Shown: positions 160 through 22,632, counted from the stretch's first letter. The stretch is 64,000 nt of DNA from Escherichia phage IME08 (NC_014260.1); one strand, 5' to 3'. The notes: a model not told the origin generated them from the letters alone. Program-made: numbers and translations.

Positions 160-1349
160 GAATAAACAATTCCCAGATAGAGCCAATAGAGGGTCCGCCG
201 GGCCCTCAAGGAGACCCGGGCCCACAAGGTATTCAAGGCCCGCCCGGCCCTCAAGGAGACCAAGGTCCACAAGGTATTCAAGGCCTTAAAGGAGATAAAG
301 GAGATACAGGTCCACAAGGTATTCAGGGCCTACAAGGACCCAAAGGACCTAAAGGAGACCAGGGTCCACAAGGCATTCAAGGGCCTATAGGTCCTATAGG
401 TCCCGCAGGGCTAATATGGAAAGGAGAATGGGATGTAGATACACTTTACTCTGTCGATGATGCTGTTGGATATGCAGGTGCATCATATTTTTGTATAGCC
501 GAAAATACCGGTAATATACCCACAGAATCGCCGGAAAACTGGGCCTTATTAGCATCGCAAGGAGCTAGAGGAGAATCAGGGGCCCAGGGCCTACAAGGAC
601 CCAAAGGGGATAAAGGAGATACGGGTCTTCAAGGTATTCAAGGACCCAAAGGGGATAAAGGAGATACAGGTCTTCAAGGACCTATAGGGCCTATAGGACC
701 TAAAGGAGACCAGGGTCCTCAAGGTTCTAGAGGTATTCAAGGTATTCAAGGTCCCCAAGGAGACCAGGGCCCACAAGGTTCTAGAGGTATTCAAGGTATT
801 CAAGGACCTCAAGGAGACCAAGGTCCGCAAGGCCTTCAAGGACCCCAAGGAGATAAAGGAGAGGATGGATTCGGAATTGATTCTAAAATAAGTGGGGTAT
901 ATAAAATTCCTGCATCCGGAACCAAAGGACAATTTTATATAAACTTACCTGGGGCAGGTGGTCTTAGATTGATTGTATCAACGGCTGGGACAGGTAATGC
1001 TGTTAAAATAGGATACGGAGGTAACTCTAGCACTGTTCAAAGAACATTTACTATAGGATATAATTTAACAGCTAATTATACCGATTTGGCAAAAATAAAA
1101 ACCGGTAGGATAAATTATACAGGGTATACTTCGGTTTCATATAGTAGCGATACAACGGCTCTAGTCGGATATGGGGATATGTATACAGCAATAGCCTCTA
1201 ATAAAGATACTTTAGATTCATGGCATATAGTAATATCAGGCGTAGTGGCAAAATCATCTGCTTCGGCCACTGATGGAAGATTACTTATATCTGTAACTAA
1301 AGTTTTTGATTCCGAAACTCAACAGATTCAAACAGGTGAAATATATTAA
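150..1349 (+). CDS. collagen-like (Gly-X-Y) repeat protein with CBM5/12-like insert and Gly-poor C-terminal domain; no canonical start codon
   Basis: Frame open from in-frame TAG 147-149 to TAA 1347-1349; Gly-X-Y triplets from 192; first ATG/GTG/TTG in frame is at 969. Confidence 0.5.
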
Positions 1350-1357
1350 AACATAAA

Positions 1358-1371
1358 GGGCCGCAAGGCCC
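1358..1371. terminator. GNRA-loop hairpin (GGGCC-GCAA-GGCCC) between convergent genes; bidirectional terminator
   Basis: Perfect 5-bp GC stem with GCAA loop between collagen-like ORF stop and rnlB stop. Confidence 0.6.
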
Positions 1372-1378
1372 TTATCAT

Positions 1379-2386
1379 TTATTTGGATACTAGTTCAATC
1401 CAAACATGTCTTAATGTTTCTTTTACACACTCAATGAGCTGCTTTTTAACTTCAACAGGATTTTCAGCGTCAGTTAATTCTAATTCTTCACGGGCAGCTT
1501 CTTCAAGGATATCTTGGACCGTCAAGCCCATTACCTTTCCAAAATCCTTTTTGGAAACTTCGCCAATCTTACTGATAACATTGTTAATACGGTTAACAGT
1601 CACATAATCAGTGAATTGCCACATCAAATCCATATCGTCTTGGGATAAAACTACCGCAGCCTTAATAGGCTTATCAGACTTTTTCTTCTCGCTGAATTTA
1701 GAGTTCTTACATTTAATCGCTACACGATTTCCGTTTGGAAGCCAGGTAGGAATATCAGGTTTAAGTACAAAGCCTTCAGCCGTGAATACTTTACCTTCTA
1801 CCTTAGGAATAAAGTCTGTAGAGTTTGCAATAGTTAGGCCGGCGTTATCCACCGCAAAATTATAATCAGGAATAACTGAATCAAAGTCATTAGGTAATTT
1901 AATAAGGTCTTCAAAGCTACCTGTAGCCAGACATGGGGCTACCTTAAACTTATGGATAATACAGAAGGCTTCCATCAATGTATCGGTTAGAACAGATTCT
2001 GAACCGTCTTCCTTAGTAACTCGGATATCGAACACATAAAAGTCTTTATCACCGTAGTCCACATTCTTCTGGATACCTGGTCCAGCGAATTCGCCATAAA
2101 TCTGGTACGACTGATAATTAATCGATTCAATTAGATGTTGAACAGATTTAATAGAATCAGCATAGTTCTTAAGTACAATTTCATAACCATAGAAATCTTC
2201 AGCAGGGAGGATAGGGCCAGTGCGCTTGGCGCATGTGACTGCGTCACGTTCTATGATTAAACTAAAGTTGGTCCCGTGAATCTTCTCACGTGCAACCCAT
2301 TCACCACCAGTCAAACCGTTGATACGGAGTTTTTCGATAAACTTACTGTTGTAGTGGTTTTCGAGACTGCTATATTTCTTGAACAT
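1379..2386 (-). CDS. rnlB: RNA ligase 2 (Rnl2)
   Basis: 335 aa; near-colinear with recalled T4 Rnl2 ([20 protein letters not shown]…, KIHGTN lysine-nucleotidyltransferase motif). Confidence 0.9.
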
Positions 2387-2500
2387 AAATCACCATAATA
2401 AATATAATTAAATAGAAGAGCTAGTATTCTTCTGTCACCAAGCCAAATGGTTTAACGGAAGGACCTAGACCCATTATAACACATCTAAATTTAAAGCATA

Positions 2501-2710
2501 TTACTTTGAACTAGAACGCGCTTTGCGCCGAACCTTGTTGTTCAATCTTTTACGATAGACAATCTTTTCTTTCGCTTTAAATTTGGCCTTAGCATTCTCA
2601 ACTTCGGTCCAAGCTTTAGCCATATCTCTGGCGGTTCCGCCAATCTTTTTAGCAATATCAATAAAATTCATACCCGATTCATGTAAAAAATGTACTTTAA
2701 TCTTATCCAT
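2501..2710 (-). CDS. small basic helix-turn-helix-like protein
   Basis: 69 aa; HTH-like segment GMNFIDIAKKIGGTARDMAKAW followed by Lys/Arg-rich tail; own early promoter upstream. Confidence 0.4.
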   Translation of the reverse strand: MDKIKVHFLHESGMNFIDIAKKIGGTARDMAKAWTEVENAKAKFKAKEKIVYRKRLNNKVRRKARSSSK

Positions 2711-2738
2711 AACAATTCTCTTGTGATTTGACTATTCA

Positions 2739-2768
2739 ATAATAACATGAGAATTTTAACTTGTAAAC
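2739..2768 (-). promoter_or_regulatory. T4-type early promoter (minus strand GTTTAC-N18-TATTAT)
   Basis: Plus-strand ATAATA (2739-2744) and GTAAAC (2763-2768), about 30-60 nt upstream of ORF start at 2710. Confidence 0.45.
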
Positions 2769-2862
2769 AGGAGATTTTATGCCAGACAATCCATTATACG
2801 GGCATGACGGTAGAGGTGTATCATTAGAACTCACTAGTGAAAGCACCTTTTAAGGAGGTTAA

Positions 2863-3729
2863 ATGATTGCACTTAAAATAAATGGTCCTAGATATGAATT
2901 GGTTGGTAAGACTGTAACGTTGTATACCGCATTTGTATTACCAGCAGGTTTGACTCTAGATGATATAGAAATTAATTGGTATAAAAATAATGTCCATGTC
3001 CCACAACTTCCTATTGAAGACCCTTTTGAATTGAATTTATGGGATGTTGGATATCCGGCGGCAGGAACATTTTATGCAACTATAACAAACAAGAAAAGTG
3101 GTGAAATAACAAAGAGTAATGAAATAGAACTTGAAATAGGTGTCATTCCAAGAAGAGTAATCCTGGATATAAGCTCTAGGGAATTAATATATGCCGATAT
3201 AGGAGAAACCGTTTCACTTCGCCCGTCGTGTAGAGTAGAACCTACTTATGCCGTACGTGATTGTAGATGGTATAGAAATGGAGTAGAATTATCTAACGAT
3301 GAAGATATTGATATAACAATAGATAGTTCTGATAAATTCGGTACATACATGTTGAAATCTATAGCGACCTGCGAAGGAGCGTATATCCCTGCTTCTGAAG
3401 AACTTTTAGTTGAAATAAAACCTAGAGGGGGTGTATTGCAGTGCCCGTTCATATATGATAACGACCTTAATGCCTATTTACCATATGGCGGCGGAAGAAA
3501 TGAATCTTATATGTGGATAGGTTGGTGGGTGTGGGACGAAATAAGAGAAGCCGTTAGATTAGGAGAAGATTGGACGTTGGATATAAACAACAGCCGTTAC
3601 AAGTATAAATGTGAGTTACAAAAAGTAGCCGACCTTTTGTCTAAGTATCATGAAGTAGAGATACAAGAATCTAGAAACGGATATATTCTGGGGCGTAAAG
3701 ACTTGCTTTATGTTCCGCCTGTACCATAA
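2863..3729 (+). CDS. Hoc-like paralog: two Ig-like domains plus Hoc-type capsid-binding C-terminal domain
   Basis: 288 aa; AAGGAGG RBS; C-terminus YMWIGWWVWDEI…EVEIQESRNGYILGRK parallels Hoc YIWCGWWVMDEI…EVDVQESRNGRIIHRT; Ig I-set-like patterns (INWYKNN…GTFYATITN; CRWYRNGVEL…GTYMLKSIATCEG). Confidence 0.7.
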   Translation: MIALKINGPRYELVGKTVTLYTAFVLPAGLTLDDIEINWYKNNVHVPQLPIEDPFELNLWDVGYPAAGTFYATITNKKSGEITKSNEIELEIGVIPRRVILDISSRELIYADIGETVSLRPSCRVEPTYAVRDCRWYRNGVELSNDEDIDITIDSSDKFGTYMLKSIATCEGAYIPASEELLVEIKPRGGVLQCPFIYDNDLNAYLPYGGGRNESYMWIGWWVWDEIREAVRLGEDWTLDINNSRYKYKCELQKVADLLSKYHEVEIQESRNGYILGRKDLLYVPPVP

Positions 3730-15064: not shown

Positions 15065-16017
15065 TGTATACTTTACAAGAATTTCAGAACCAGGCAATTA
15101 ATATTGACCTACAGAGGAATAATCTGTTTAGTGTAGTATTTGCTACAGTTCCTTCTTCTAAATCCCAAGCGCTCCTCGACCAGTTCGGTGGAGCTTTATT
15201 TAACAATATCCCATTGAATAGCGATTTGTTTGGTATTACACAAGGAGAGTTGACCCAAGGTGTTACGACATTAGTGACAGCGGGCACTCAGAAGCTCATT
15301 CGTAAGTCAGGCATAAGTAAATATCTGATTGGAGCTATGTCATCCAGGGTTGTGCAGAGCTTACTAGGAGAGTTTGAAGTAGGTACATATCTGATGGATT
15401 TTTTCAATATGGCTTATCCTACAGCAGGTCTTTTAGTCCATGCCGTTAAAATCCCGGATAATACTTTGAACTATGAAATGGATTTGAACCACAACTCGCC
15501 TAATATCAAAATTACCGGAAGAGAATATTCTCCTCTGGTATTAAGCTTCCGTATGGATTCTGAAGCTGCCAACTACCGTGCTTTTAATGATTGGGTCAAT
15601 AGTGTCCAAGACCCTATTACACAATTAAGAGCATTACCCGAGGATGTTGAAGCTGATATTCAAGTCAACCTTCATTCTCGTAATGGGCTACCTCATACAG
15701 TAGTAATGCTTAACGGTTGTGTTCCTGTGGGTGTTTCATCGCCTGAATTATCTTATGACGGTGATAACCAAATTGCTTCGTTTGATGTTACATTTGCTTA
15801 TAGAAGTGTGCAGACGGGTGCAGTTGGTAAACAGGCTGCTTACGAATGGCTGGAAGATAAAGTCCTTAAAGGAGTGGCGGGCATAAGTGAGAGTAATTCA
15901 CTGAGTTCTTCAGTAGCTAAATTAAGCCGACTTTCAGGAGCTTCTAGTGGATTGACCGGATTGGTTAACACATTTGGCGGGCGTACTATTAATAATGGAA
16001 TATCGAGGTTGTTATAA
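15064..16017 (+). CDS. 54: baseplate tail tube initiator gp54
   Basis: 317 aa; ATG overlaps gp48 stop; T4 size 320. Confidence 0.85.
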   Translation: MYTLQEFQNQAINIDLQRNNLFSVVFATVPSSKSQALLDQFGGALFNNIPLNSDLFGITQGELTQGVTTLVTAGTQKLIRKSGISKYLIGAMSSRVVQSLLGEFEVGTYLMDFFNMAYPTAGLLVHAVKIPDNTLNYEMDLNHNSPNIKITGREYSPLVLSFRMDSEAANYRAFNDWVNSVQDPITQLRALPEDVEADIQVNLHSRNGLPHTVVMLNGCVPVGVSSPELSYDGDNQIASFDVTFAYRSVQTGAVGKQAAYEWLEDKVLKGVAGISESNSLSSSVAKLSRLSGASSGLTGLVNTFGGRTINNGISRLL

Positions 16018-16023
16018 CAAAAA

Positions 16024-16041
16024 AGGAGAGCGTATGCTCTC
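16024..16041. terminator. bidirectional hairpin terminator (GGAGAGC-GTAT-GCTCTCC)
   Basis: 7-bp perfect stem between convergent gene 54 (+) and the minus-strand early cluster. Confidence 0.65.
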
Positions 16042-16052
16042 CTTTAGGGGGT

Positions 16053-16343
16053 TTACTTACGGAACGAAATGAAACCTGCCGCCGTCATTAGCGGTTGCTT
16101 TTTAACAAATACCGTAACTGAAATAGGAGCTTCGGATTCAAGCTGACCAGTCACTACACCATTAAAGATATTTTCAGTTTGTTCCGGCTGAGAAAAGTTC
16201 TCAACAGGGCGGATATCAAATTGCTTATCTTCACCGAAAACTCGACGCAATTCATTACCAATGGCACTGTCAAACTCTTCGGAAGCAGGGATAACGTTTT
16301 CAACTACCAGTTCTTGACCATTAAAACGGAATGCAGATTTCAT
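16053..16343 (-). CDS. hypothetical protein downstream of alt (alt.-3-like position)
   Basis: 96-aa ORF, no recognised motif. Confidence 0.45.
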   Translation of the reverse strand: MKSAFRFNGQELVVENVIPASEEFDSAIGNELRRVFGEDKQFDIRPVENFSQPEQTENIFNGVVTGQLESEAPISVTVFVKKQPLMTAAGFISFRK

Positions 16344-16400
16344 AATGTTCTCCTCATGTTTGTGTAAGGTAATAGTACCACATCCATGTGGTGTTGTAAA

Positions 16401-18524
16401 CTACATTTTGAATTTATTTGGCAGAGCAGAGATATCCAAAGATGCAGCAAGGATTTCCATAGCCTCGTTGCTTTCAGAAACAGATTCACTAACCAAGAAC
16501 TGTTTAAAGCCATCCATCGGACGAACTTCACCGGTTTCCATCAGATGGTCGCCGTCATAAACAGATTCACTGAGCTCTGAAGGAGACATCACAGTAGCTT
16601 CCATAAGATATTTGTGAGATACCCTATCATTCATAGCAAAAGCCGCTACTTTATCAACCTTCATCAATAATCCGCGCGGAAGGATAATTTCTGCTTCTTC
16701 AGCGTATTCTGTAAGGTCACCAGGAGCGATAACTTTAACTGCTTCAGCACCTCGAATAACCATACCAATTTCAGCAATTCTATCCGCAGGGCCTTCAGGT
16801 GCAATTGGATTACCAAACTCGTCTTCTTCCCATTCTACCTCTTCATCGTCGACTTCACCTACATCAGATGAACTACCGCTAGCCAATTTAAACAACTCAT
16901 CAGCGGAGGATAAAGAACCTTCACCACCAACAAAAACGGCTTGGTTGTCGAGGGCCATATAATTTTTACCGAATTCACCAAAGATGTTAGGCTTTAGTGA
17001 GGCGGACACAAAGTTCTTAAAGTAAAATGTTTTGTTATCGATATTATGACGCAGAATTTTGTATGGCAAATCCTGACCACGATACAAAATAGTACCCTTA
17101 GGAAGTTTAATACCCTTAGTAAATGCCGAGTCTAAATCCTTAATCAATCTAATAGCCGTTGTATTGTTTTCGGATTCAGGTTTACCTAAAAGGAATAAGT
17201 TCATAGGAGCATATTCAGCTGCGCAATATTCAATAATAGCATTGCTTTCGTCTTTGGTTAGGTCCTTAGGTTTAATGAGCTCGCCTGAATAAGCATATGC
17301 ATCACCAATAGAATCGTTAATCAGTTTATAAACGGCTTCCATAGCGAAAGCAATTCGAGATGCCTTTTCTGAAGGGGAGCCATTAAAACGGGCACTCAGG
17401 TTATTAACAATTCTCTTAATAATATCCAGACTATTGGTAGTATTGATTTGCGAAAGGCCGCTTAAAAGTCTATCGACTTCTGTATTAAAAAATGCCATAT
17501 TTTTAGAGTAAATTTCAAACCCTTGTTTATCTCTATTAGCATAATTTAGTTTAAATTTACTATCAGTCATTAAAGCATGTGTGAGAGCAATAGTGTATCT
17601 AAAGTTAGCAAGGTCCTCGCTCTTAGATTTAAACTGAGAAGCCTGGCGCATTTTGGTAATAGCACCTTTTTTAAAGTTCTGACTAATCTGTTCAATACCT
17701 TCGTTCTCAGGGCCTTCGGCAGTGTGAACCGGTACAGAAGCTTCAAACTCGTTATAAACCTGCAATTCTTTAGGGGACAAAGTTTCAGGCTCAGCAGTAG
17801 AATACTGCGCGGCAGCCGCCATACGACGGGAAATCTTAGTACGAGTAATGACAGCCTTATCGGTACGTTTCTCTTCAACCTGTGCAATAGATGCCGCTAC
17901 GGCTTCGACCTTACTTACGGCCTGGCCGGTTTTCTTAGAAACATACACTTCGCCGACTTTAGAATCGACTTTGGTATAAAGGTCGGCATCAATTTCAGGC
18001 ATGCCTTTGATATCTTCGATATTGGAACCACGACGTACTAAAAGAACGTAGGTATGTTTTCCACTGAACTGGAACATGCTATCAACAACTTTAAACTTAC
18101 CGCCAGTACGAGCCATCGCTAAACGTGCCAATACGCGCTGAACAGTAGGACCCTTACCTTTCATTTTCTTGGTAGGGAAACGGAATAAAACTGCATCCAT
18201 TTTAAGTTTGTTTACTTGTTCGTATACAGTATCGAAAATGGTATTCAGTGTACCAAGTGGGTCAGAACCAAGGCCACCCTTAAGTTCAGCCGGAGCACCC
18301 TTGCTTGACAAACTCATTAGAATAACATGAATGTATTTGTCGCCTGGCTTAACCATTTTAATAGCGTCTCCTTGAGACGCATAAGATACCATACGAGCAA
18401 CCAGGTTATCATTACCTGGTGCATGGATAGAGAAAATCTGTGGAATACCGGAACCCGGTTTAAGATTTGTTACTGGATAGTTTTTAGCGGAATCACTATC
18501 AAAAACCTCGTTTAAATTTTCCAT
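16401..18524 (-). CDS. alt: Alt-like ADP-ribosyltransferase, paralog A
   Basis: 707 aa; R-S-E ART triad context (YRGQ…, FVSAS, EAEIILPRG); conserved N-terminus shared with paralog B. Confidence 0.85.
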   Translation of the reverse strand: MENLNEVFDSDSAKNYPVTNLKPGSGIPQIFSIHAPGNDNLVARMVSYASQGDAIKMVKPGDKYIHVILMSLSSKGAPAELKGGLGSDPLGTLNTIFDTVYEQVNKLKMDAVLFRFPTKKMKGKGPTVQRVLARLAMARTGGKFKVVDSMFQFSGKHTYVLLVRRGSNIEDIKGMPEIDADLYTKVDSKVGEVYVSKKTGQAVSKVEAVAASIAQVEEKRTDKAVITRTKISRRMAAAAQYSTAEPETLSPKELQVYNEFEASVPVHTAEGPENEGIEQISQNFKKGAITKMRQASQFKSKSEDLANFRYTIALTHALMTDSKFKLNYANRDKQGFEIYSKNMAFFNTEVDRLLSGLSQINTTNSLDIIKRIVNNLSARFNGSPSEKASRIAFAMEAVYKLINDSIGDAYAYSGELIKPKDLTKDESNAIIEYCAAEYAPMNLFLLGKPESENNTTAIRLIKDLDSAFTKGIKLPKGTILYRGQDLPYKILRHNIDNKTFYFKNFVSASLKPNIFGEFGKNYMALDNQAVFVGGEGSLSSADELFKLASGSSSDVGEVDDEEVEWEEDEFGNPIAPEGPADRIAEIGMVIRGAEAVKVIAPGDLTEYAEEAEIILPRGLLMKVDKVAAFAMNDRVSHKYLMEATVMSPSELSESVYDGDHLMETGEVRPMDGFKQFLVSESVSESNEAMEILAASLDISALPNKFKM

Positions 18525-18527
18525 TAT

Positions 18528-20612
18528 TTACCCTTGGATGAATTTTTCTGGGATGTCATAGAGGTCTATGCATGAAGCCAAAAGAGGCAGTACATCAAAC
18601 CGTGTAGATTTGACAAATGAATCAAAAGATACAGGGCTTTCGGAAGTATCGAAGTCATCTTGATATACGACCAACTCGCCGGTTTCCATTAGTACGTCAC
18701 CATCATACACCACAGATTCTTGAAGCTCATCTGTCGTCATAACTTCAGCTTGGATGAGTTTTGTATTATTAGATGTTGTTCCGTCATTATTAGAAGCATC
18801 TGTTATTTTATTAACTTTGACCATCAATCCGCGCGGTAGAATAACTTCAGCTTCTGTTGCTATTCCGAGACTTCCTGGATATACAACATTGACTTTATGA
18901 GCCCCATCAATCGCCCATCCTATTTGAACTTTAACGTAATCAGGATTTTCTTTATACGCTCTTATTTCATTAGGATTAATAGTTATTCCTTCTTCATTTT
19001 TATCGACTGTCAATTCATCGCGAACTTCCGGTTCTAAAAGACCAATACCAGCGTGTGTAACACCAAATCGTCCAAAAATGATAGGGGTTAAAGAAGTAGA
19101 TACAAAATTTCTGAAATAGAACACTTTATTTTTAACTAGTGCTTCGTATATAGGAGCAGTCATACTCTGTGCACGATAAACTGTGATGCCTTCTGGTATA
19201 CGGTCACCGTTTTCAAAAGCAGAATCCAAATTATTGACTGCAGATTCAATAGATTTTTCGTTCATTACATCATAGTTATGAGGATTATAGCGTCCTAAAA
19301 GAAGATTATTGATGTCTGTATATCCAGAACCACAATATTCTCTGATGCCGCGCTTTTGTGATGGGGTATATTTAGAGCCCTCACGAGCAATAGTAATATC
19401 GACCATAATACCGCCGCCCACACCAGCAAAACTATATACGCGTTTTTTAATGAATTTGGTCTTGGCTGCTTTCCACTTGGACTCGGTCAATTCATTCCAG
19501 AGGTCGTCGGGTTGGCCTTTACGAGTTTTGTTATGCTGGGCCAACCATTCGCCTTTGTATTCTTCGAAAACGGTATTAATAACAGAGGCATATTTTTCTA
19601 GAGCTTTAACAGATGTCAAAGGTTCGTTTTTGATGGCTGTAAGAATTTTCTCTTTAATTTTCTCTTGGATTTCACCTATACCATGAAGAGGAAACATTTT
19701 ATAATCGTAATGCAACTCTTCAGCAGTGCCTTCGGCTACTATATTAGCCACCTTATTTTTAGCCGCAGGAGAATTGTTATTAGTAACCATTTCCTGAGCC
19801 TCAGGGATTAATGGAGCTGTTGCCGGTTTATTAAAATCTACGGCAGTTGCTTCATATTTCTTAAACAGTTCACTTTCATTACGATAAGATTCTAACGATT
19901 GACTTGCTGCAATGGCACGACGAGAAATCTTAGTCTTGGTTATAACCATTTTATCAGTGCGACGTTCTTCAACTTTAGCAATACTGCCGGCAATAGCAGT
20001 TTCTTTAGTAACCTGCACACCTTCTTTTTTAGAAATATAAACTTCACCGACATCAGAATCTACCTTAGTGTATAATTCGGCATTAATTCCTGGCATACCT
20101 TTGATATCTTCGATATCAGCTTGTTTACGAACTACTAAGATATAAGTATGTTTACCAGTAAATTGGTACATAGCCGGAACTACTTTAAAACGTCCACCGG
20201 TTTTCTGTGCTACCAAACGTTGGATAATACGTTGGACAATAGGGCCTTGTCCTTTCATTTTCTTGGTAGGAAAACGGAACATGATGGCATCCATACGAAG
20301 CTTTTTAACTTGTTCGAATACTACGTCGAAAATGGTATTAATGGCATCAATAGGAGTAGGGCCTAAGCCGCCTTTAAGTTCAGCAGGAGAACCTTTAGCC
20401 GAAAGGCTCATAAGGATAACGTGGGCATATTTGTCACCTAATTTAACTTGTTTAATGGCATCGCCTTCAGAAGCGTAGGACACCATACGCGCCACTAATT
20501 GAGACTCTACGTCTCCAATCTTCCAAATCTGTGGTACTTTAAGTTTAGGGTTCAAGTTTACTGTAGGCAGTGTGCCTTCGGACTCAAACACTTCATTTAA
20601 TTGTTCGGTCAT
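18528..20612 (-). CDS. Alt-like ADP-ribosyltransferase, paralog B
   Basis: 694 aa; same architecture (YRAQ…, FVSTS, EAEVILPRG); divergent central segment. Confidence 0.85.
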   Translation of the reverse strand: MTEQLNEVFESEGTLPTVNLNPKLKVPQIWKIGDVESQLVARMVSYASEGDAIKQVKLGDKYAHVILMSLSAKGSPAELKGGLGPTPIDAINTIFDVVFEQVKKLRMDAIMFRFPTKKMKGQGPIVQRIIQRLVAQKTGGRFKVVPAMYQFTGKHTYILVVRKQADIEDIKGMPGINAELYTKVDSDVGEVYISKKEGVQVTKETAIAGSIAKVEERRTDKMVITKTKISRRAIAASQSLESYRNESELFKKYEATAVDFNKPATAPLIPEAQEMVTNNNSPAAKNKVANIVAEGTAEELHYDYKMFPLHGIGEIQEKIKEKILTAIKNEPLTSVKALEKYASVINTVFEEYKGEWLAQHNKTRKGQPDDLWNELTESKWKAAKTKFIKKRVYSFAGVGGGIMVDITIAREGSKYTPSQKRGIREYCGSGYTDINNLLLGRYNPHNYDVMNEKSIESAVNNLDSAFENGDRIPEGITVYRAQSMTAPIYEALVKNKVFYFRNFVSTSLTPIIFGRFGVTHAGIGLLEPEVRDELTVDKNEEGITINPNEIRAYKENPDYVKVQIGWAIDGAHKVNVVYPGSLGIATEAEVILPRGLMVKVNKITDASNNDGTTSNNTKLIQAEVMTTDELQESVVYDGDVLMETGELVVYQDDFDTSESPVSFDSFVKSTRFDVLPLLASCIDLYDIPEKFIQG

Positions 20613-20648
20613 AATAATTCCTCTTTAATAACCTTATTTATGCCAGAA

Positions 20649-20664
20649 AAGGCCCGAAGGCCTT
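20649..20664. terminator. hairpin AAGGCC-CGAA-GGCCTT (C(UUCG)G on minus transcript)
   Basis: Immediately upstream of alt paralog B start on the minus strand. Confidence 0.5.
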
Positions 20665-20836
20665 AAAGTGGTAGCAACGTACGGTATACTTCGAATGTCG
20701 GGCCTTTTTCGTAGCCATCAAAGACCTCAATAAATTTATTATATGCGGCTTCATCTATGAATTCTAAAATGGTTTGAGAAACGGCTGGGGCAGCCGTAGT
20801 ATGCGATATTACAATTGTTTCTAAATAAGCTTTCAT
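20663..20836 (-). CDS. hypothetical small protein (alt.1-like position)
   Basis: Probable start at internal ATG 20836, 1 nt after the ligase stop; ORF-track ORF 20663-20878. Confidence 0.4.
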   Translation of the reverse strand: MKAYLETIVISHTTAAPAVSQTILEFIDEAAYNKFIEVFDGYEKGPTFEVYRTLLPL

Positions 20837-20837
20837 A

Positions 20838-22343
20838 TTATAGTCCAGTTTGAGACCAATCACCGAATACATCTTCAAATGTATCAGCTTCTGTTTTATC
20901 GAAACGCCAACCTTTAATGATTGGAAGGAAAATACCTACAGTATCTGTACGTCCTTTAGAATGAACCCAACCATTACATTCACAGTCAGCAATACGTCCA
21001 ATCAACTTACCTTCACGAGCTTGTTTCATAAGAAGTTCACGGTCTAAATCAGGACGGTCTTCCAATGGAATCAATACCTTTTTACCTGATTTATCTTTCT
21101 TATGGGTGGTATCTTTAAAGCCTGAACCACAGTCACTTGTAATTCGTCGACAACGTGATACCAACTCGACCCCACCTAGTTTGTTAGGGTCCTTCGAGTG
21201 TTCATAATAACCTACTACTTCTAAAGCGATATCGATTACTTCTTTGAACTTGATAAGATTCTTAGAACGGCGGTTTTCCCAGTAGGAGTCCATGTTCTTA
21301 AGGATAATGCCTTCCAGACCTTGGTCGACATATTTTTTATAAACGACTTTAGCTTCTTCAAGATTATTAACCCATTGCGTTTCGATAGGCTCGACACGTG
21401 TAAAGCCTTCAGCCATTTGTACTAATGCCGCTAAACGAACATCGTATTTTTGACCTTTAATTTTGCCTTCAGAATAAACTTCATCCAGTGGAACAAAGTC
21501 CCATGCCTGTAATACCATACCATCGGCTTCAGCCGGAGTAATAGTTCCTTGAAGAGCCTTGTTAGCCAAGCCGTTTGAAGTAGAACGATCAGCGACAGTT
21601 TGGAATTCCTTAGCCTTACTTAATTCAGGAAGTTCCTCATCAAACATACTAAACAAATCATTAGATGCTTTAGGTTCTACTTTAGGAGTATGGTAAACTA
21701 ATTCACCATCAATCATAACCCCATTAGGATGGCGTTGTCGAGCTTCTTCGGTCATTTTAATAAGTTCGGCTGCAAGCTTAGTAAGCCCTTGATATTCATT
21801 ACCACCACGAGTAAGGAATGTCACCCCATCGTTACGAACTTCGGCAAAACAACGAGCACCGTCAGCTTTTAATTGAGCAAACGCTGGCCATTTAATATTT
21901 TTCTTAATTAAAGCTTCATCATAAGAACTAGCTAACATTTGAGGTTGTTCAGGGATTAAACCTTTCCAAACCTTGTTAGCAATAGAAATCGATGCACCGC
22001 ATTCAAGGTCACGCATCATTACACGACGTAATACCTCGGCATCCGAGGCCTTAGCATCAGCAATGATTTGAGCCAGTTCTTCAATAGCCGCATTACCCGT
22101 AATCTTACGGGTGGCTAATGTGAACTCTGCGAAATCAAGAAGGTCTTCAAGAGTAATCATACCAAAGGATTGAGACGTAAATCCAGGTTCTGGCCACTTT
22201 TTAATGCCATAGTTTAAACGACGGGTATAAGCCATACGATAAACACGTTTCAGAAGCTCATCGTCCTTTTCACGAGCAATAATGGCTTCTTTAGCTTTAG
22301 TAGAATCAATAGCAGCAATTTCGTTTAAGATATCTAAAATCAT
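20838..22343 (-). CDS. 30: ATP-dependent DNA ligase gp30
   Basis: Start at internal ATG (MILDILNEIAAI…); KADGARC adenylation motif; colinear with recalled T4 ligase. Confidence 0.9.
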   Translation of the reverse strand: MILDILNEIAAIDSTKAKEAIIAREKDDELLKRVYRMAYTRRLNYGIKKWPEPGFTSQSFGMITLEDLLDFAEFTLATRKITGNAAIEELAQIIADAKASDAEVLRRVMMRDLECGASISIANKVWKGLIPEQPQMLASSYDEALIKKNIKWPAFAQLKADGARCFAEVRNDGVTFLTRGGNEYQGLTKLAAELIKMTEEARQRHPNGVMIDGELVYHTPKVEPKASNDLFSMFDEELPELSKAKEFQTVADRSTSNGLANKALQGTITPAEADGMVLQAWDFVPLDEVYSEGKIKGQKYDVRLAALVQMAEGFTRVEPIETQWVNNLEEAKVVYKKYVDQGLEGIILKNMDSYWENRRSKNLIKFKEVIDIALEVVGYYEHSKDPNKLGGVELVSRCRRITSDCGSGFKDTTHKKDKSGKKVLIPLEDRPDLDRELLMKQAREGKLIGRIADCECNGWVHSKGRTDTVGIFLPIIKGWRFDKTEADTFEDVFGDWSQTGL

Positions 22344-22353
22344 AATCACCTCA

Positions 22354-22632
22354 TTAGTCATGGATTCTATTATAAGCCACATCGGCCAAAAGCAAGTCTA
22401 ATCGCTTATGATAAGAGAACACAAATCTCATTCGCCCGTCAGATTTAATTTTGGACATAAAATGGACATAAATGAATCCCTGTTCGACGCATTCGCGCCA
22501 AACAGGATGGTCTTTAGCCGGATTTACATCAAATGAGTAATCATGATTCACATGACGAATAAACTGGTTTACATGACCATAATCCATTGTAGTGGTAGGA
22601 CCATAGTCTGAAATTGTATGAACTACAAACAT
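22354..22632 (-). CDS. hypothetical protein (30.1-like)
   Basis: ORF with internal start MFVVHTIS…; T4-like position. Confidence 0.45.
   Translation of the reverse strand: MFVVHTISDYGPTTTMDYGHVNQFIRHVNHDYSFDVNPAKDHPVWRECVEQGFIYVHFMSKIKSDGRMRFVFSYHKRLDLLLADVAYNRIHD

Follow-up and report, generated by a model that had tools for sequence, protein, structure and literature searches.

Organization of the alt locus

The DNA analysed here, a stretch of 64 kb hereafter referred to as the window, belongs to Escherichia phage IME08, a T4-like Dhakavirus (JS98-like T-even phage), and is 97.6% identical to phage vB_EcoM_IME341. No tRNA genes were found in the 64-kb window. Two intact Alt ADP-ribosyltransferase (ART) genes, both under selection, lie next to each other, and all the features given with coordinates below are on the minus strand. 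The upstream copy, AltA, is an ORF of 694 amino acids (18528..20612), and the downstream copy, AltB, is an ORF of 707 amino acids (16401..18524). A sequence-only reading of this DNA had proposed such a tandem of full-length paralogs, and ORF calling agrees with it: the two share the same strand, and a 3-nt spacer, ATA (18525..18527), separates the stop codon of AltA (TAA) from the ATG of AltB. The order of the locus, ligase-alt.1-alt-alt-alt.-3-gene 54, is syntenic with T4, and synteny comparison shows that the alt position between gene 30/alt.1 and alt.-3/gene 54 is kept. The final gene of the alt unit is alt.-3, a conserved small ORF of 96 amino acids (16053..16343) that is annotated under this name in T4, JS10 and JS98. 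An intrinsic-terminator-like hairpin, with a 10-bp stem and a T-run (16022..16045), closes the unit before the convergent gene 54.

Both ORFs are members of the Alt family. Pfam PF03496 matches both (E = 8e-36 and 5e-18), and PHROG 802, 'Alt-like RNA polymerase ADP-ribosyltransferase', matches both from end to end (E = 6e-262 and 4.5e-251). Each is homologous to T4 Alt over the full length, including the N-terminal domain of about 230 residues. The tandem arrangement is already annotated and common among T-even phages, and is not new; alt duplications were reported by Nolan et al. in 2006 (PMC1524935). JS98 and JS10 carry both genes, likewise in this order, annotated as alta and altb, and in vB_EcoM_IME341 both genes are annotated as 'RNA polymerase ADP-ribosylase'. 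In these three phages, the nucleotide identity to the two genes of the window is 92-97.6%.

Two other assignments were considered and rejected. The ModA and ModB proteins of T4 are short (about 200 amino acids), early, ART-only proteins that lack the N-terminal and central domains of Alt as well as its propeptides. Membership in this group, which was compared by description, is ruled out by the length of about 700 amino acids and the Alt architecture. Membership among the MuF-fused or polyvalent effectors is also ruled out, since PF03496 is the sole Pfam domain and there is no MuF; according to Iyer et al., ARTs of the Alt clade do not occur in genuine polyvalent proteins.

Domain structure of AltA and AltB

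Each Alt protein is made of five parts: a predicted N-propeptide of 6-7 residues ending in L-N-E, a basic α/β N-domain of about 230 residues, a helical centre of about 180 residues, a C3/VIP2-type R-S-ExE ART domain, and a predicted acidic C-propeptide of 54-62 residues that follows an L-x-E site. In AltA, these parts are residues 1-7 (20592..20612), 8-235 (19908..20591), 236-410 (19383..19907), 411-632 (18717..19382) and 633-694 (18531..18716), respectively. The corresponding parts of AltB are residues 1-6 (18507..18524), 7-237 (17814..18506), 238-420 (17265..17813), 421-653 (16566..17264) and 654-707 (16404..16565). The N-domain of AltB is strongly basic (pI 9.8, net charge +14), while its ART domain is acidic. 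At E <= 10, Pfam has no match to the N-domain of either copy, and in the centre of AltB it gives chance-level helical matches only (Dynamin_M and HeLo).

In T4 Alt, cleavage occurs at ITE-6 and LTE-619 (PMC5694885). AltA has predicted gp21 sites aligned with these at LNE-7 and LQE-632, and AltB at LNE-6 and LSE-653. The motifs are kept in all 31 Alt copies examined, and residues E6 and E653 do not vary among 73 homologues.

The ART context noted in the sequence-only reading, YR(G/A)Q, FVS(A/T)S and EAE(I/V)ILPRG, was found complete in both copies. These motifs start at residues 479 (YRAQ), 503 (FVSTS) and 587 (EAEVILPRG) of AltA, and at residues 481 (YRGQ), 505 (FVSAS) and 610 (EAEIILPRG) of AltB. 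On careful alignment, the catalytic Arg, Ser and Glu-x-Glu are intact in both proteins, as R480, S505-T-S507 and E587-A-E589 in AltA and as R482, S507-A-S509 and E610-A-E612 in AltB, so that neither paralog lacks them. Among the 73 homologues, these residues either do not vary or reach a conservation of at least 90%. With Foldseek, the ART domain in the AlphaFold model of AltB has structural matches to Vis, Certhrax, C3, CDTa, iota and VIP2 (E = 3e-7 to 5e-4). A sequence search of the PDB with AltA gave weak matches to iota and CDTa (E of about 2e-3) and no solved Alt structure. Arginine-specific activity is predicted for AltA and AltB from the C3/VIP2-type R-S-ExE ART domain.

Divergence between the two copies

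AltA and AltB have a sequence identity of 40% over their full length (BLASTP, E = 5e-146), which is very unevenly distributed. Conserved N-terminal regions and a strongly divergent centre, between residues of about 230 and 430, had been pointed out from the sequence, and the segment identities bear this out: 66% over residues 1-235, 13.6% over residues 236-410, 35.6% in the ART domain and 40% in the C-terminal tail. The N-domains of AltA and AltB are 42-45% identical to that of T4 Alt, in an alignment that spans all the domains. AltA has an identity of 49% to T4 Alt overall and of 63% in the ART domain, while AltB has an identity of 35%. Judged by these sequence comparisons, AltA is the T4 Alt orthologue.

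The ART domain of AltB has an acidic insert of 64 residues, [517-580] (16785..16976), which has a net charge of -15 and is predicted to be disordered. It comes after the S-x-S motif and before the strand that leads to ExE, and alignment shows no counterpart in AltA or in T4 Alt. The pLDDT is below 50 at residues 517-529, 552-565 and 573-577.

Expression signals

Directly after the stop codon of alt.1, there is a hairpin, AAGGCC-TTCG-GGCCTT (20649..20664), which is followed by a T-run. It is found at the same place in T4, in AUBRB02 and in all 13 other Dhakavirus loci. This hairpin is terminator-like and precedes a putative alt promoter, the late-promoter-like motif CATAAATA (20635..20642), whose end is 22 nt from the ATG of AltA. 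The motif has one mismatch to the T4 late consensus TATAAATA, at the first base, and in T4-like late promoters the first T is reported to be poorly conserved (PMC1524935). Behind the same hairpin, the homologous site reads TATAAATA, the canonical form, in T4 and AUBRB02, and CATAAATA in all the Dhakavirus loci; the combination of (T/C)ATAAATA and hairpin upstream of the first alt gene is thus positioned as in T4. An exact search for TATAAATA gave no match in 16000-21000 and nine in the 64-kb window, which is not above chance. It is because of its position, homologous to that of the late-promoter element of T4, that CATAAATA is regarded as a candidate promoter. A sigma-70 promoter scan had fewer matches than shuffled sequences and was uninformative.

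No late-promoter-like motif was found within 400 nt upstream of AltB. The junction of TAA, 3 nt and ATG occurs at every alt-alt boundary in the relatives, and also between alt and alt.-1 in T4. This 3-nt layout implies co-transcription of AltA and AltB and possibly coupled translation, and the AAGGG before the spacer could be a Shine-Dalgarno sequence for AltB.

Conservation and selection

Both altA and altB are under strong purifying selection, with dN/dS of 0.03-0.10 in every domain. Comparison across related phages, which had been suggested as a check, gave a dN/dS of 0.069 for AltA and of 0.055, at a dS of about 0.28, for AltB (11 orthologues each). The ART domain has the lowest value among the segments of AltB (0.030). 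Absence or disruption of one copy in all the close relatives is refuted, as 13 of the 14 Dhakavirus loci examined, the window included, have AltA and AltB intact. The one exception is vB_EcoM_005, whose downstream copy lacks the ExE motif through an in-frame deletion; catalysis by AltB is therefore dispensable at least there, unless the record is faulty. The AltB-type copies examined, 12 with that of the window, are all uninterrupted ORFs. Together, dN/dS and ORF integrity speak against AltB as a pseudogene or a redundant copy.

Full-length cassettes of the AltB type occur in 463 phage records, T2 and RB18 among them. Over its full length, the AltB cassette shares 47% identity with the second alt gene of T2, RB18 and AUBRB02, which occupies the same downstream slot and has the same TAA, 3-nt and ATG junction. 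However, the gene of these phages has an N-domain of the Tequatrovirus type, 35-68% identical to that of AltB in sliding windows, and a shorter acidic insert.

T4 has small ORFs, alt.-1 and alt.-2, at the equivalent position. The sequence-only reading had placed them there as possible remnants of a second copy; the T4 record contains them, and together they match the full-length downstream paralogue of the Tequatrovirus AUBRB02, over its first 116 residues, at 95-98% identity. Their remnant status is already stated in the T4 GenBank record and by Nolan et al. (PMC1524935). The T4 DNA is collinear with the AUBRB02 gene, at 96% nucleotide identity, save for one deletion of about 1.7 kb, which leaves the two small ORFs. 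This deletion is present in 91 of the 498 records matched by the T4 deletion-junction sequence, that is, in T4 and 90 others. AltB is an old second lineage, which T4 has lost through the deletion of about 1.7 kb. It may be the most widespread second type, and it is not known to have been characterised, since the gene is deleted in the model phage T4.

Exchange of the central and ART domains

Domain-level recombination takes place at the alt locus, which goes beyond the existing annotation. The N-domain and the C-propeptide follow the phage lineage, while the cassette made of the central and ART domains is exchanged laterally. At least seven cassette types are present in 14 phages, and the ART segment is 84-97% identical in nucleotides across genera. 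In JS98, the upstream copy has a central and ART cassette unlike that of the window, although its N-domain and C-tail are 97-100% identical.

It is possible, and we propose it tentatively, that the alt locus of T-even phages is a polymorphic array of injected effectors, in which a lineage-specific delivery frame (N-propeptide, basic N-domain and acidic C-propeptide) carries exchanged central and ART cassettes with different host targets. In this view, AltB, like the third alt copy of MX01 and that of WG01, could be an enzyme dedicated to counter-defence or takeover, acting on targets that do not resemble RNA polymerase alpha. More speculatively, the conserved N-domain of Alt may be a degenerate or active GNAT-like module.

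Proposed function

The alt locus very probably comprises two late genes, transcribed together, whose products are injected mono-ADP-ribosyltransferases of the head interior, of which AltA would be T4-Alt-like and AltB would have divergent targets. The T4 virion holds about 40 copies of Alt. By analogy with T4 Alt, AltA and AltB would be built into the prohead core, and the gp21 protease would trim both of their ends. Ejected with the DNA, they would then draw on host NAD+ to modify proteins of the host ahead of any phage gene expression. NAD+-dependent ADP-ribosylation of host proteins is known only for T4 Alt, which modifies RNA polymerase alpha at Arg265, MazF and others (PMC2988021, PMC10286901); no experiments on a Dhakavirus Alt, and no virion proteomics of both copies in a two-copy phage, were found in the searchable literature. 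AltA is expected to act on Arg265 of RNA polymerase alpha and on the remaining proteins known as targets of Alt. For AltB, another set of host proteins is most likely, because neither its central domain nor its loops before ExE are related to those of AltA and because of the acidic insert. Distinct targets for the two copies are plausible on this basis, but as T4 Alt is known to be promiscuous, the two sets could overlap heavily.

It is improbable that AltB repeats the function of AltA, either as a redundant copy that arose recently and adds dosage or as a copy in decay. A recent duplication could be suggested by the N-domains, which are 66% identical to each other in this genome and 42-45% identical to that of T4; T4 has lost most of its second copy, vB_EcoM_005 has lost the ExE motif, and alt is non-essential in T4 (PMC9026906). 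However, the centres (13.6%) and the ART domains (36%) are as distant as any two cassette types, and the Tequatrovirus orthologues of the AltB type, at 47% identity, place the split between AltA and AltB before that of the genera. The dN/dS of AltB, at its dS, also means long-term constraint, and its ORF is uninterrupted wherever it was examined.

Two further readings give AltB another role. That AltB is mainly a structural or packaging part of the head core, through its basic N-domain, with a secondary or vestigial catalysis, is slightly less probable still. The N-domain is better conserved than any other part, resembles the internal proteins embedded in DNA in being basic, and tracks lineage rather than cassette type, and the ExE-deleted variant of vB_EcoM_005 is a natural one; yet R, S and ExE are invariant or nearly so in the 73 homologues, and the lowest dN/dS of all the segments, that of the ART domain, is unexpected for a vestigial active site. 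The least probable reading is that AltB acts on an unconventional, non-protein substrate, by RNAylation with NAD-capped RNA or by ADP-ribosylation of nucleic acids. There is a precedent in T4 ModB, a related R-S-E ART that is reported to join NAD-capped RNA to proteins (PMC10468400), and the central domain of AltB matches no identifiable family. On the other hand, the ExE motif and the nearest structural neighbours are those of protein-arginine, protein-asparagine or small-guanidine transferases, the sequence has no specific sign of nucleic-acid binding, and the ART domain is acidic.

As a discovery, the locus adds little, for the genes are in GenBank for this phage group and the duplications have been in the literature since 2006. 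The knowledge of injected ADP-ribosylation comes almost entirely from T4, a phage whose second enzyme is deleted, while the majority of T-even phages, T2 among them, have genes for two or three different Alt enzymes and may inject them all. Since the cassettes cross genera and the packaging frame stays, the alt locus is a natural place to seek new host targets, possibly defence proteins, as MazF is for T4 Alt. The alt frame could also serve as a scaffold to package foreign enzymes into T4-type heads.

Comparison with known systems

AltA resembles T4 Alt in domain order, in R-STS-ExE, in the gp21 sites at both ends, in genomic position, and in the upstream hairpin and late-promoter-like element. 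AltB has the same architecture and motifs, but it differs from T4 Alt in a central domain that is unrelated in sequence (17%), in SAS instead of STS, in other residues of the pre-ExE loop and in the acidic insert of 64 residues. The toxins C3, VIP2, iota, CDTa, Vis and Certhrax (PF03496) share the ART fold, the catalytic R, S-x-S and ExE with the Alt proteins. However, their identity is 13-16%, and the N-terminal and central domains of Alt are unrelated to them. These R-S-E toxins use secretion or a binary B component, while the route of Alt would be ejection from the phage head. Polymorphic toxins, MuF-fused or polyvalent head effectors (Iyer et al. 2017, PMC5512222; Iyer et al. 2022, PMC9503650) and the T4 internal proteins that have a capsid-targeting sequence resemble the alt locus in combining a conserved delivery or packaging module with a fast-changing, exchanged effector. 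Unlike in these systems, the exchangeable unit of Alt is internal, between a conserved N-domain and a conserved C-propeptide.

Organization of the alt locus

Two open reading frames lie next to each other on the minus strand, the upstream AltA (18528..20612, 694 aa) and, 3 nt further downstream, AltB (16401..18524, 707 aa). BLASTP aligned the two proteins over their full length with 40% identity (E = 5e-146); each hits Pfam PF03496 (ADP-ribosyltransferase exoenzyme) and aligns end to end with PHROG 802 (Alt-like RNA polymerase ADP-ribosyltransferase). The sequence-only reading, which had placed two tandem full-length Alt paralogs at 16401-20612, was borne out in every detail, the motifs it quoted included. 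The surrounding genes are the ones found around alt in T4: alt.-3 (16053..16343), alt.1 (20663..20878) and the DNA ligase gene gp30 (20838..22382), together with the plus-strand genes gp48 and gp54. Mechanical ORF calls exceed the JS10 annotation for alt.1 (71 aa, from a TTG, versus 57) and for the ligase (514 versus 507 aa). If the annotated starts are used, the ATG at 20834, directly after the ligase stop codon, becomes the first codon of alt.1 and the apparent overlap vanishes.

A 5-kb query across the locus matched 475 phage records, of which vB_EcoM_IME341 was the best (97.6%), followed at 90-95% by other Dhakavirus, among them JS10, JS98, Bp7 and MX01. The genes are already named alta and altb in JS98 (EF469154) and JS10 (EU863409), both copies are annotated as RNA polymerase ADP-ribosylase in IME341 and IME281, and three alt copies are present in MX01, QL01, AnYang, C6 and WG01. 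Nolan et al. 2006 described T4 alt.-1/alt.-2, RB49ORF183c and 44RRORF188c as paralogous alt duplications, and 44RRORF187c as a full-length duplicate (PMC1524935), and the T4 RefSeq record traces alt.-1 and alt.-2 back to the first part of alt, duplicated long ago. The tandem pair is therefore annotated and published, and not new.

Downstream of alt.1, the sequence reads as a hairpin, AAGGCC-TTCG-GGCCTT, followed by a late-promoter-like motif, CATAAATA (20635..20642), and by a Shine-Dalgarno sequence, AAAGAGGAA, between this motif and the AltA ATG. T4 and the Tequatrovirus AUBRB02 have an identical hairpin, which is followed at the equivalent position by the canonical late promoter TATAAATA. 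CATAAATA is found in all 13 other Dhakavirus loci, and the first position of the late-promoter motif is reported to vary in T4-like phages (PMC1524935). No late-promoter-like motif was found in the 400 nt upstream of AltB, and a strong terminator-like hairpin (16022..16045) follows alt.-3. The genes altA, altB and alt.-3 most likely form a single late transcript.

Catalytic residues, predicted processing sites and selection

Alignment with T4 Alt (R478, STS 503-505, EME 574-576) gives the catalytic sets R480, S505-T-S507 and E587-A-E589 for AltA, and R482, S507-A-S509 and E610-A-E612 for AltB, so that neither paralog lacks the catalytic Glu or Arg. Among 73 aligned homologues, no substitution affects the Ser or either Glu, and the Arg is retained in at least 90%. 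The prohead protease gp21 cuts T4 Alt at ITE-6 and LTE-619 (PMC5694885; PMC9026906); the aligned positions are LNE-7 and LQE-632 for AltA; for AltB they are LNE-6 and LSE-653. Of 31 Alt copies compared, from 14 phages and the window, 30 have I/L-x-E at each end; in the AUBRB02 downstream copy, the aligned C-terminal triplet is QLE and an L-x-E (LEE) lies one residue later.

dN/dS was calculated from 11 Dhakavirus orthologues per gene: the value is 0.069 for AltA, 0.055 for AltB and below 0.1 for every domain of both. No interrupted ORF was seen among the orthologue copies examined, and both genes are intact in 13 of 14 Dhakavirus loci, the window included, the lone exception being AltB in vB_EcoM_005 (674 aa; 901..2925 of locus L013). 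There, an in-frame deletion of 33 residues, equivalent to about 16600..16700 of the window, takes out ExE-ILPRG, while the remaining protein is ~100% identical to the window AltB. Either this phage naturally encodes a catalytically dead AltB or the deletion is an assembly artefact in a record of only 155 kb.

Predicted structure of AltB

An AlphaFold2 model of AltB, built with 73 homologues (mean pLDDT 76, pTM 0.71), can be described as an α/β N-domain (~18-218), an all-helical center (~233-417), an ART domain (~424-650) with a low-confidence insert (517-577), and a poorly defined C-tail. A PDB sequence search found no solved Alt structure. Run against the PDB, Foldseek matched the model, through its ART domain, to R-S-E toxins only: Vis, Certhrax, C3, CDTa, iota and VIP2 (E = 3e-7 to 5e-4). 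Residues 1-420, modelled separately (pLDDT 77.5), had no convincing structural neighbor in Foldseek; GNATs ranked first (best E 0.08), and neither Pfam nor a profile search of PDB sequences supported this likeness. A GNAT-like fold is a lead suggested by the model and not a result. A second precomputed Pfam match, PF26846.1, accompanies PF03496 on every Alt homologue of AltB (16404..18524), and presumably covers the N-terminal or central region.

The N-domains are strongly basic (pI 9.8, net charge +13/+14) and the C-propeptides acidic (pI about 4). The ART domain of AltB carries a 64-residue insert (16785..16976) that is predicted to be disordered, has a net charge of -15 and contains SSSDVGEVDDEEVEWEEDEFGN; it is shorter in T2-type AltB, and absent in AltA and T4 Alt.

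Proposed function

From the combined analysis, AltA and AltB are best described as putative arginine-specific mono-ADP-ribosyltransferases that would be packaged in the head, processed by gp21 and injected. AltA would perform the functions of T4 Alt, which modifies Arg265 of RNAP alpha (PMC2988021), MazF (PMC10286901) and other proteins. AltB may modify a target set different from, or overlapping, that of AltA, because its central domain is unrelated, the loop preceding ExE differs (APGDLTEYAEEAE in the comparison with YPGSLGIATEAE), and it has the acidic insert. The observation made in the sequence-only reading is confirmed and its interpretation supported.

A redundant or decaying AltB was considered and is rejected in view of the selection data and the age of the split. 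AltB is unlikely to be purely structural, since no segment of its gene is under stronger constraint than the ART domain (dN/dS 0.030). That AltB, as an ADP-ribosyltransferase, acts instead on unconventional substrates, for example by ModB-like RNAylation, seems very improbable.

Evolution of the alt genes and comparison with T4

Identity to T4 Alt is 49% for AltA (63% within the ART domain) and 35% for AltB; by sequence, AltA is the T4 Alt orthologue. In tblastn, the central+ART cassette of AltB, which comprises the helical central domain and the ART domain, matched 463 records with at least 80% coverage: 42 Dhakavirus at ≥90% identity, and others at ~47%, from Tequatrovirus and relatives, including T2 (AP018813) and RB18. 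AUBRB02 has alt genes of 697 and 685 aa in the same order as the window. T4 alt.-1 and alt.-2 correspond to residues 1-56 (95% identity) and 62-116 (98%) of the AUBRB02 downstream protein, but share only 56-62% identity with T4 Alt itself. From the alt stop codon to alt.-3, T4 DNA matches AUBRB02 at 96.5%, skips ~1,690 nt, and matches again at 95.6%; the earlier suggestion that alt.-1 and alt.-2 are remnants of a second copy therefore holds. The deletion junction occurs in 91 of 498 matching records, the remainder matching one side of it only. Together with the T4/AUBRB02 collinearity, this places T4, on sequence comparison, in a minority that lost AltB, the tandem pair being the common state.

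Segments of the genes from 14 phages were compared by sliding-window identity and clustering. The N-domain, up to about residue 230, and the C-tail past the L-x-E site track phage lineage and gene slot, while at least seven types can be told apart in the central+ART segment; this modular pattern goes beyond existing annotation. In the AUBRB02 upstream copy, the N-domain (97-100% identity) and the C-tail (87-90%) are close to those of T4 Alt, while the ART domain is 87-100% identical to that of the window AltA (nucleotides: 84-97% in the ART segment, 44-58% in the flanks). The upstream copies of JS98 and vB_EcoM_005 match the window AltA at 97-100% in both N-domain and C-tail, yet at only 15-60% over most of central+ART. 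The Bp7 downstream copy joins an AltB N-domain to a T4-type center and ART domain. The window's own N-domains share 66% identity with each other, against 42-45% with T4, a pattern consistent with gene conversion or with N-domains co-adapted to the head of their own lineage. The CLB_P2 and dhaeg upstream copies are ~100% identical to AltA except for one short, swapped and shortened loop between STS and ExE (18930..19020, residues ~531-560), an exchange confined to the region presumed to recognize the substrate.

The third alt gene occupies differing slots. MX01 has it between AltA and AltB (4029..6074 of L002), and WG01 upstream of AltA (8118..10013 of L014; 631 aa, C-propeptide of just 30 residues); each has its own cassette type with R-S-ExE intact. 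Every alt-alt boundary, and likewise T4 alt/alt.-1, has the same junction, TAA, 3 nt, ATG; it would provide homology for unequal crossing-over, consistent with the two- and three-copy arrays. T4 is atypical here, and the alt locus appears to behave as an exchangeable effector array.
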